Part shown: piece by piece, positions 8,101 to 9,623 of the stretch
How positions within the stretch are numbered: position 1 is the first letter of the stretch
Layout of the letters: every line of letters starts with the position of its first letter
Assembly: GCF_053078305.1 (NCBI RefSeq)
Contig: NZ_CP166879.1
Length of the DNA stretch: 64,000 nt
Direction: 5' to 3' (one strand)
Translations under genes and position numbers: made by a program
Notes under the pieces: generated by a model
Told to the model about the DNA's origin: nothing
The model's input: the letters and a program-made list of their open reading frames with translations, nothing else
Database searches by the model: none

Positions 8101-9000
8101 ATGCTTATGTCGCAGTTCGATTTTACCAGTCTGGATCCCTTTGCCCGAGCCGTTTCTCCTTTTGAGGAAATGGCGGCTTATGAGGCGTTATGGTCAGAAA
8201 AAGGCGCGACATTCAAAACTATTGCGGATAAATTTCGTGCAGCACCAACCGGCTCGCTTCCTTCTGACTTTGTCTCAGACAGCATTATTGCTGCTTTTAA
8301 AAACCGGCTGAAAGAAATTATCGCGCGTTACGATATTGACGATCTGGGGATACGTGTCCATGGGGCCGGAGAATATCCAGAAAAACTGCGGGATGCGCGG
8401 AACCCCATAGAACTTCTTTACTATCAGGGGTGGTGGGACCTGATTAACACTCGCTCGGTAGCTGTTGTTGGTTCCCGTAGAGTCTCTGAAGAAGGAGCAA
8501 AACGAACCCGCAAAGTCGTCAAATTTCTGGTTGAGGATGGTTTTACCATCGTTTCAGGACTGGCTGAAGGCGTGGATACCAACGCGCATCAGACGGCACT
8601 GGCTCTGGGTGGTAAAACGATTGCAGTTATCGGGACACCACTTTCACATCATTATCCCAGACAAAACAGTAATCTGCAGAAAAACATTCGCGACAACCAC
8701 CTGCTTATCAGTCAGGTTCCGTTTCATCGATACCTGGAGCAGGACTATCGGAGCAACCGAATATTTTTTCCGGAGCGAAATGTCACGATGTCTGCGCTGA
8801 CAGAAGCAACGATTATTATTGAAGCATCAGAAACATCAGGTACTCTGACTCAGGCACGTGCGGCACTTGCCCAGGGCCGAAAATTGTTTATTCTGGAATC
8901 CTGCTTTCGTAACCCATCAATTACATGGCCTGCCCGTTTTGAAGCGCAAGGGGCCATTCGGGTCAGGAATTACGAAGACATCAGGAGGCATCTCCGTTGA
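8101..9000 (+). CDS. DprA/Smf-like Rossmann-fold (SLOG) protein, ShosA-like
   Basis: 299 aa; DprA-type motif string VAVVGSRRVSEEG...IVSGLAEGVDTNAHQTALALGGKTIAVIGTPLSHHYP...EASETSGTLTQARAALAQGRKLFILES; stop overlaps the start of the next gene. Confidence 0.65.
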   Translation: MLMSQFDFTSLDPFARAVSPFEEMAAYEALWSEKGATFKTIADKFRAAPTGSLPSDFVSDSIIAAFKNRLKEIIARYDIDDLGIRVHGAGEYPEKLRDARNPIELLYYQGWWDLINTRSVAVVGSRRVSEEGAKRTRKVVKFLVEDGFTIVSGLAEGVDTNAHQTALALGGKTIAVIGTPLSHHYPRQNSNLQKNIRDNHLLISQVPFHRYLEQDYRSNRIFFPERNVTMSALTEATIIIEASETSGTLTQARAALAQGRKLFILESCFRNPSITWPARFEAQGAIRVRNYEDIRRHLR

Positions 9001-9623
9001 CACTTCGTCTGACTCTGATTGATGAACTGATACGTAAACAACATCATTATCTGGAGGATGGTGATCTGTGTTATTGCTTTGGCGAATACACAGCCCGACA
9101 AGGCGCTGCTTACAGCGAAACTAACCAGTTAATCATCAATCTTAAAAAGGGGTATGAACGTCGGGCATTCCCTGATTACCACTATAAAAAGGTTGCTATT
9201 GAGTATGTTGCTCAGATGCTCATATCAAATATCGGTAATCTTGAGGAATACACATTTGTTCCCGTACCACCATCCAAATGCCGTACAGATGCCGCTTACG
9301 ATGACCGTATGACAGAAATTCTGCGAATTGCGCAAACCTACGAACCCTGGCTGGATTACCGGGAACTGGTTGTGCAAAACGTATCAACAATTGCCTCTCA
9401 TACCGCAACAAACCGGCCCTCACCAGAAGCGATTATGGCAAACTACCAACTGGATGAACAATTACTGGAGGGATGCAGGCCCTGGATTGTTATTTTTGAT
9501 GACGTTCTTACTGCCGGTAGCCATTTTAAAGCGATGAAAAGCCTGATACTACAACATATTCCTGAAGCCTGTATACTGGGACTCTTTGTTGCCCGAACAA
9601 CCCGGGGAGCTCAAATTATTTAA
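8997..9623 (+). CDS. Phosphoribosyltransferase (PRTase)-domain protein, ComF/ShosT-like
   Basis: 208 aa; C-terminal PRPP-binding-type motif WIVIFDDVLTAGSHF; TTG start at 8997 overlapping the upstream TGA (TTGA), with AGGAGG at 8983-8988. Confidence 0.55.
   Translation: MTLRLTLIDELIRKQHHYLEDGDLCYCFGEYTARQGAAYSETNQLIINLKKGYERRAFPDYHYKKVAIEYVAQMLISNIGNLEEYTFVPVPPSKCRTDAAYDDRMTEILRIAQTYEPWLDYRELVVQNVSTIASHTATNRPSPEAIMANYQLDEQLLEGCRPWIVIFDDVLTAGSHFKAMKSLILQHIPEACILGLFVARTTRGAQII

Follow-up and report, generated by a model that had tools for sequence, protein, structure and literature searches.

Between positions 8101 and 9623 of the window, the whole 64,000-nucleotide stretch of contig NZ_CP166879.1 (assembly GCF_053078305.1) that was analysed, two genes follow each other on the plus strand (Table 1). 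The first codes for a DprA-like protein, a putative antitoxin, and the second for a short PRTase-fold protein, a putative toxin; we name them shosA-like and shosT-like, after the ShosTA family with which they are compared below. Bases 7900 to 9800 of the window match the chromosome of Escherichia coli strain STEC17-190 with 100% identity. The stop codon of the first gene and the start codon of the second share the letters TTGA, and the Shine-Dalgarno sequence of the second gene is located within the first. This arrangement, a TTG start in a TTGA overlap preceded by AGGAGG, was part of the original prediction, and it is upheld both by the coordinates and by the RefSeq annotation of NZ_CP075649.1, a 100% identical E. 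coli chromosome, where the shosT-like gene begins at the identical TTG. In the same annotation the shosA-like gene starts at the second ATG, position 8107, a choice that agrees with homologues beginning MSQLDF. The genes are tightly coupled into one unit; their two proteins are therefore probably translated together from a single mRNA.

Table 1. Positions of the pair, its signals, its conserved loops and its neighbours in the window
Feature	Position	Strand	Remarks
Contact-dependent inhibition locus	1..7513	-	cdiB and the 5' part of a very large cdiA
cdiB	5747..7513	-	
Predicted promoter of the pair	8045..8072	+	TTTACA, 16-nt spacer, TAAACT; consensus scan
Perfect 10-bp inverted repeat	8059..8081	+	TGAACAGGTA AAC TACCTGTTCA; overlaps the predicted -10 element
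shosA-like gene (DprA-like putative antitoxin)	8107..9000	+	297 aa; 299 aa if the start is at 8101
Shine-Dalgarno sequence of the shosT-like gene	8983..8988	+	AGGAGG, within the 3' end of the shosA-like gene; read off the sequence; 8 nt before the TTG
Start/stop overlap of the two genes	8997..9000	+	TTGA; TTG 8997-8999, TGA 8998-9000
Short shosT-like gene (PRTase-fold putative toxin)	8997..9623	+	208 aa
VPVPPSK, conserved loop after a core strand	9258..9278	+	residues 88-94; P89, P91, P92 and S93 invariant (38-sequence alignment)
PRPP-binding loop IVIFDDVLTAGSHF	9486..9527	+	residues 164-177; D168, D169, T172, G174 and H176 invariant (38-sequence alignment)
Primase-helicase gene	9641..12025	-	794 aa; convergent, 17 nt downstream of the pair
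Genes for an inovirus-type Gp2 protein and a YfjI-family (DUF3987) protein	12152..15132	-	
tRNA-Thr	19246..19321		sole tRNA of the window

Upstream of the pair, the pattern GGTTTACA ... GGTAAACTA/GGTACACTA is seen again 5' of the pairs of Salmonella (L088) and Lelliottia (L005). The inverted repeat that overlaps the predicted -10 element is partly kept in Lelliottia and absent in Salmonella; for that reason its role is uncertain, and it could be an operator or else the terminator of a small upstream ORF. LexA control of the E. coli pair was considered and rejected, as this palindrome does not match the CTGT-N8-ACAG box. By contrast, ATACTGTATGCATAAACAGTAT, a good match to that box, is found about 102 nt 5' of the DprA-like gene of Burkholderia phage Mana (L096), where the short pair may be under SOS control; a box of this kind is absent ahead of the E. 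coli pair. An Rfam scan of positions 7200-10200 returned zero RNA families and so gave no indication of an RNA antitoxin.

The pair belongs to a genomic island that extends, in the matching genome, from the tRNA-Thr to an integrase beside paoD, some 48 kb apart; no integrase is found next to the tRNA-Thr, the only one being that of the far end. Upstream of the pair come cdiB and cdiA, the latter annotated as a tRNA nuclease effector, with an immunity gene that lies beyond the start of the window in the matching genome. Downstream, the convergent gene codes for a protein combining an archaeo-eukaryotic primase domain with an SF2 helicase domain. It matches the PADLOC PrimPol model at 8e-141 and bears the RefSeq name of a TOTE conflict system protein; within the literature that could be searched, no paper describing TOTE was found. 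Further on, the stretch coding for the Gp2 and YfjI-family proteins is one that we take to resemble the backbone of the CP4-57 element of K-12, and in the matching genome it is followed by a helix-turn-helix gene. The G+C content is about 46-49% over the pair, against 57-58% in cdiB. That the pair would sit in a tRNA island beside a helicase, and that the housekeeping genes smf and gntX are unlinked in E. coli, had both been put forward in the original prediction: the tRNA-Thr and the convergent primase-helicase gene agree with the former, and the distance of about 110 kb between smf and yhgH/gntX in K-12 with the latter.

A DprA-like protein and its short PRTase-fold partner

ShosTA systems have been studied from the E. 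coli strains APEC O1 (Rousset 2022, PMC9122126; Pu 2025, PMC11961720) and KTE181 (Yang 2026, PMC12961424; see also Millman 2022 for ShosTA). In these systems the PRTase is the toxin and the DprA-like protein the antitoxin (PMC11961720; PMC12961424). At the APEC O1 locus, which belongs to a P2-like prophage, shosA (327 aa) and shosT (424 aa) are one base apart. The studied ShosT consists of a HAD-like pyrophosphatase domain (residues 1-164) followed by a PRTase domain (165-424). Residues D331 and D332 are needed for toxicity (PMC11961720; PMC12961424), while R56A, a mutation in the pyrophosphatase active site, reduces it marginally (PMC11961720). By contrast, the short toxin is a single domain of 208 residues, with no pyrophosphatase domain.

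The Pfam DprA family, PF02481, covers residues 83-288 of the first protein (6.5e-57), which is indeed of the DprA/Smf type, as was first proposed. The PADLOC model of ShosA (PDLC03961, PADLOC-DB 2.0) matches it at 4.2e-103 and 343 bits, residues 24-298 lying on profile positions 18-293 of 303. By itself this model is generic and non-specific, since the housekeeping Smf of E. coli reaches 195 bits, while the ShosA of APEC O1 obtains 285. The first protein also scores under the curated cut-offs of both NCBIfam DprA equivalogs (165.8 vs 191.15 for TIGR00732, 138.6 vs 495 for NF008007), and it is therefore not a housekeeping Smf. With the ShosA of APEC O1 it shares 31% identity (E 6e-26), so that the two are clearly homologous; the PDB entries of ShosA (8zva and 9vzo) match it at about 4e-21. 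In its predicted structure, taken from the fused model described below, helices at 20-76 precede an alpha/beta domain, in keeping with the studied ShosA, where an N-terminal helical (SAM) domain is followed by a Rossmann domain. The ssDNA-binding arginines R139, R234 and R261 of ShosA, of which R139 and R234 are required for rescue too, align to R126, R226 and R253, the first two being invariant (77/77 family members each) and the third kept in 68 of the 77. As for the residues that contact RecA, K200 of ShosA aligns to R187, a position held by K or R in 66 of the 77 members, whereas R206 gives way to Q193, with Q in 75 of them. Unlike the studied ShosA, moreover, the protein displays no clear counterpart of the unstable C-terminal tail.

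The second protein matches the PADLOC model of ShosT (PDLC03962) at 2.2e-50 and 170 bits, residues 4-203 lying on profile positions 2-213 of 237. Here the match is specific and the model discriminating, since YhgH/GntX, the ComF homologue of E. coli, gets just 27 bits, when APEC O1 ShosT gets 180. A further ShosT model, PDLC03012, which fits the long form only, does not match the 208-residue protein; neither does any Pfam family at E up to 10, any NCBIfam family, ComF included, at E up to 0.01, or any PDB sequence at E up to 1. Of what had been anticipated for this protein, the PRPP-binding motif is found, at residues 164-177; the Pribosyltran and ComF models, which had been named as a check, correspond to no Pfam PRTase match and no NCBIfam ComF match. 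With BLASTP, the DD/PRPP loop alone aligns to the ShosT of APEC O1 (E 1.2), and it is the sole stretch aligning with D331/D332; comparison of the same two proteins with hhalign gives a probability of 1%. These sequence comparisons being non-significant, homology to the studied ShosT rests on the PADLOC model common to both and on the fold.

An AlphaFold2 model of the protein, built with 38 homologues (pLDDT 91.5), is made of a single domain, a PRT fold with three PRPP-binding loops as in ComFC. A Foldseek search with this model places the crystal structures of ShosT (8zvc, 8zvd and 8zvb) first, level with ComFC from Helicobacter pylori, and in a further comparison the PRTase domain of ShosT was its second-best structural match. 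In the 38-sequence alignment, D168 and D169 are invariant within FDDVLTAGSH. The PRTase fold further suggests that VPVPPSK is likely the pyrophosphate-binding loop. The alignment has C25 as the only invariant cysteine; there are no CxxC pairs, and the four-cysteine zinc finger is absent. A profile of the short family meets YhgH of E. coli with 75% probability over 61 columns. This family comprises 406 clusters and, among the matches listed, its members are mostly 206-230 residues long, a few truncated entries aside. The missing zinc finger and the missing ComF match place the short toxin, as a PRTase-fold protein, between ComFC and ShosT: the ShosT profile covers it, but it is not the studied protein.

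The two proteins were also modelled together as one fused chain with AlphaFold2, using a 30-residue linker and 23 natural paired sequences; this model, which comes with no control and no error map, has a pTM of 0.85 and a mean pLDDT of 85, the linker alone being disordered. Two bodies without a fixed mutual position would be expected to yield a much lower pTM, so that the model predicts contact, a hint that the ShosA-like and ShosT-like proteins may bind each other directly. Studied ShosTA, by contrast, follows a type IV mode, in which toxin and antitoxin do not associate; contact here would instead recall the interaction reported between DprA and ComFC.

The pair has several features in common with the ShosTA of APEC O1: the antitoxin gene precedes the toxin gene, the junction is tight, and both proteins are matched by PDLC03961 and PDLC03962. 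The DD pair of the PRPP loop is kept together with the ssDNA-binding arginines, and both are carried by temperate phages and islands, in their variable regions. The ShosTA-like composition that was first proposed for this locus, a PRTase toxin with a DprA-like antitoxin, is thus supported by PADLOC matches near full length. The caveat that sizes and gene order might differ proved right for size, the toxin having half the studied length for want of the N-terminal domain, and unnecessary for gene order, which is the same. Beyond the PRPP loop, sequence similarity between the short toxin and the studied ShosT is not significant.

Another known system, PsyrTA/RqlHI, also has a DprA-like antitoxin, and its toxin, a RecQ-like helicase-PRTase, carries a PRTase domain (Millman 2022). 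The PsyrA model matches the first protein at 8.4e-27. However, this represents 92 bits against 343 for ShosA, the second protein has no helicase domain, and the PsyrT model does not match it at E up to 10.

Spread of the pair and its decay in E. coli

In a survey where one genome per species was scanned, 80 loci were collected from many phyla. A ShosA homologue is found directly upstream of the toxin gene, on the same strand, in 78 of them, and at all of these 78 junctions the genes are separated by anything from a 47-nt overlap (-47) to a 6-nt gap (+6). Proteobacteria, Bacteroidota, Acidobacteriota and Chloroflexota are among the groups that keep the pair. With the same order, the same strand and near-zero spacing in 78/80 loci, the association is far beyond chance. 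Of the two exceptions, one is a fragment that in truth belongs to E. coli; the other is in Chitinophaga, where the DprA-like gene is more distant and lies 1.3 kb off. In L044, a contig from a metagenome bin labelled Collinsella, a toxin remnant accompanies a primase-helicase copy that is 95% identical to that of E. coli; the contig almost certainly comes from E. coli and was misbinned. The antitoxin is better conserved than the toxin, with a mean identity of 59% for ShosA vs 43% for ShosT.

Neighbouring genes differ between loci, and the two-gene unit moves as such. In a lambdoid prophage of Tolumonas it has the replication genes on one side and the nin genes on the other; in the P2-like Burkholderia phage Mana it lies between the integrase and cos. 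It is also present in phages of Pseudomonas and Ralstonia, on plasmids, and in an integrase-bearing island next to other conflict-type genes.

Within E. coli the pair is rare. Among 5426 complete genomes, shosA was found in 39 (0.7%) and the 5' part of shosT likewise in 39, equal counts that do not prove the genomes to be identical; 36 of the 39 carriers have it on the chromosome and three on a plasmid. About 650 further complete genomes, O157:H7 included, hold a 3' remnant of shosT only, beside the primase-helicase gene, the antitoxin gene being gone. The remnant of O157:H7 begins at codon 59 of shosT, beside an IS30 fragment, while others consist of the last 70 codons or so, beside an IS66-family element; the extents correspond to positions 9171-9623 and 9406-9623 of the window (7001-7635 in L094 and 7001-7395 in L095). 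As these 3' toxin remnants cut by IS30 or IS66-family elements attest, the ShosTA pair has been destroyed repeatedly in E. coli. Judged by the counts, no toxin-only genome was seen among the 5426, as is expected of a toxin dependent on its antitoxin. The remnants are annotated as a small hypothetical protein, and their origin in shosT explains the short "hypothetical protein" fragments found by the primase-helicase gene in O157:H7 and in several hundred genomes.

Possible roles of the pair

Going by profile tools, the pair is a member of a known defence family; its architecture is short, and it is not a copy of the studied system. Going further, we put at about three in four the probability that it is a self-contained, horizontally mobile toxin-antitoxin/abortive-infection cassette of the ShosTA family, in its short architecture. 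The toxicity and the phage defence that go with such a reading are what we infer from studied ShosTA. Other explanations of the same two genes must be weighed against it.

The one that survives best, improbable as we find it, makes of the pair a DNA-handling module of mobile elements: a loader of the DprA type, together with an ssDNA-binding partner akin to ComFC, would act on the ssDNA of the element, or on incoming ssDNA, in the manner of DprA and ComFC during natural transformation, and neither protein would be toxic. [quoted passage not shown] However, the zinc finger with four cysteines that defines ComFC (PMC9005727) is missing from a family with one invariant cysteine, no NCBIfam ComF model matches, and the defence-derived ShosT model, which rejects a true ComF homologue, is strong here. 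The short toxin also departs from ComFC of H. pylori (7P0H; PMC9005727) in being coupled in an operon with a DprA partner on mobile elements. Furthermore, smf and yhgH are already present in the host, and a sporadic spread with repeated decay in E. coli fits an accessory conflict gene.

We give hardly any credence to a displaced or duplicated copy of ordinary smf (dprA) and comF/gntX, retaining a housekeeping function. Both domain types do match competence genes, the two folds are those of Smf and YhgH/GntX, and one source calls the second protein a ComF family protein; yet the first protein, besides its NCBIfam scores, has none of the extra C-terminal region of the 374-residue Smf, the second lacks both a ComF model match and the zinc finger, and the pair sits in a tRNA-Thr island in just 39/5426 genomes of a species that has the real smf and yhgH in its core genome, at other sites and unlinked. 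Scarcely credible as well is a larger system shared with the convergent primase-helicase gene of TOTE annotation, which is 17 nt away, adjacent in every pair-bearing E. coli genome and adjoined by the remnants in about 650 others, but which is not co-transcribed with the pair, being convergent, stays intact where the pair is destroyed, and, among the 80 loci, has a homologue beside the match only in the L044 contig, a near-identical E. coli copy next to a mere toxin remnant, with one other match, weak and some 5 kb off (L015); the neighbour being absent from related loci outside E. coli, linkage to it was rejected.

Read as a short ShosTA cassette, the pair might work as follows. The PRTase would bind or use PRPP, and so make or deplete a nucleotide-related metabolite; this activity would poison nucleotide metabolism and harm DNA replication, hence be toxic. 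In uninfected cells the DprA-like protein would keep the cell alive via ssDNA binding and RecA-dependent repair. Phage infection, through host shut-off or a flood of phage ssDNA, would disable the antitoxin or outlast it, and the PRTase would then stop the infected cell before the phage cycle ends. The missing pyrophosphatase domain is probably dispensable in the short toxin: a toxin devoid of it is plausible, considering the marginal effect of R56A in the studied system (PMC11961720). If the short toxin is active, then the pyrophosphatase domain is unneeded for the core mechanism of the family.

It is conceivable, if doubtful, that the short form goes further and makes a mechanistically distinct ShosTA subtype. 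The toxin would derive from a ComFC-like protein minus its zinc finger, the DprA-like partner would restrain it by binding it directly, much as DprA binds ComFC in competence, and phage ssDNA would compete for this partner, thereby releasing the PRTase. If true, this would be a competence pair repurposed as an ssDNA-sensing abortive-infection switch, unlike the long form, whose two proteins make no contact. The link with ComFC would, in addition, suggest where the toxin comes from.

All ShosTA experimentally studied carry the 424-residue toxin, and the short form is known here from sequences and models. To our knowledge, every published structure and mechanism of ShosTA concerns the long, two-domain toxin, and to these the locus adds an example of the short architecture that is intact and in its native arrangement. 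Judged by profile length, short ShosTA seems to be more common in genomes than the long form: with 303 and 237 positions, the PADLOC models of ShosA and ShosT are short, which suggests that they were built largely from proteins of the short size.
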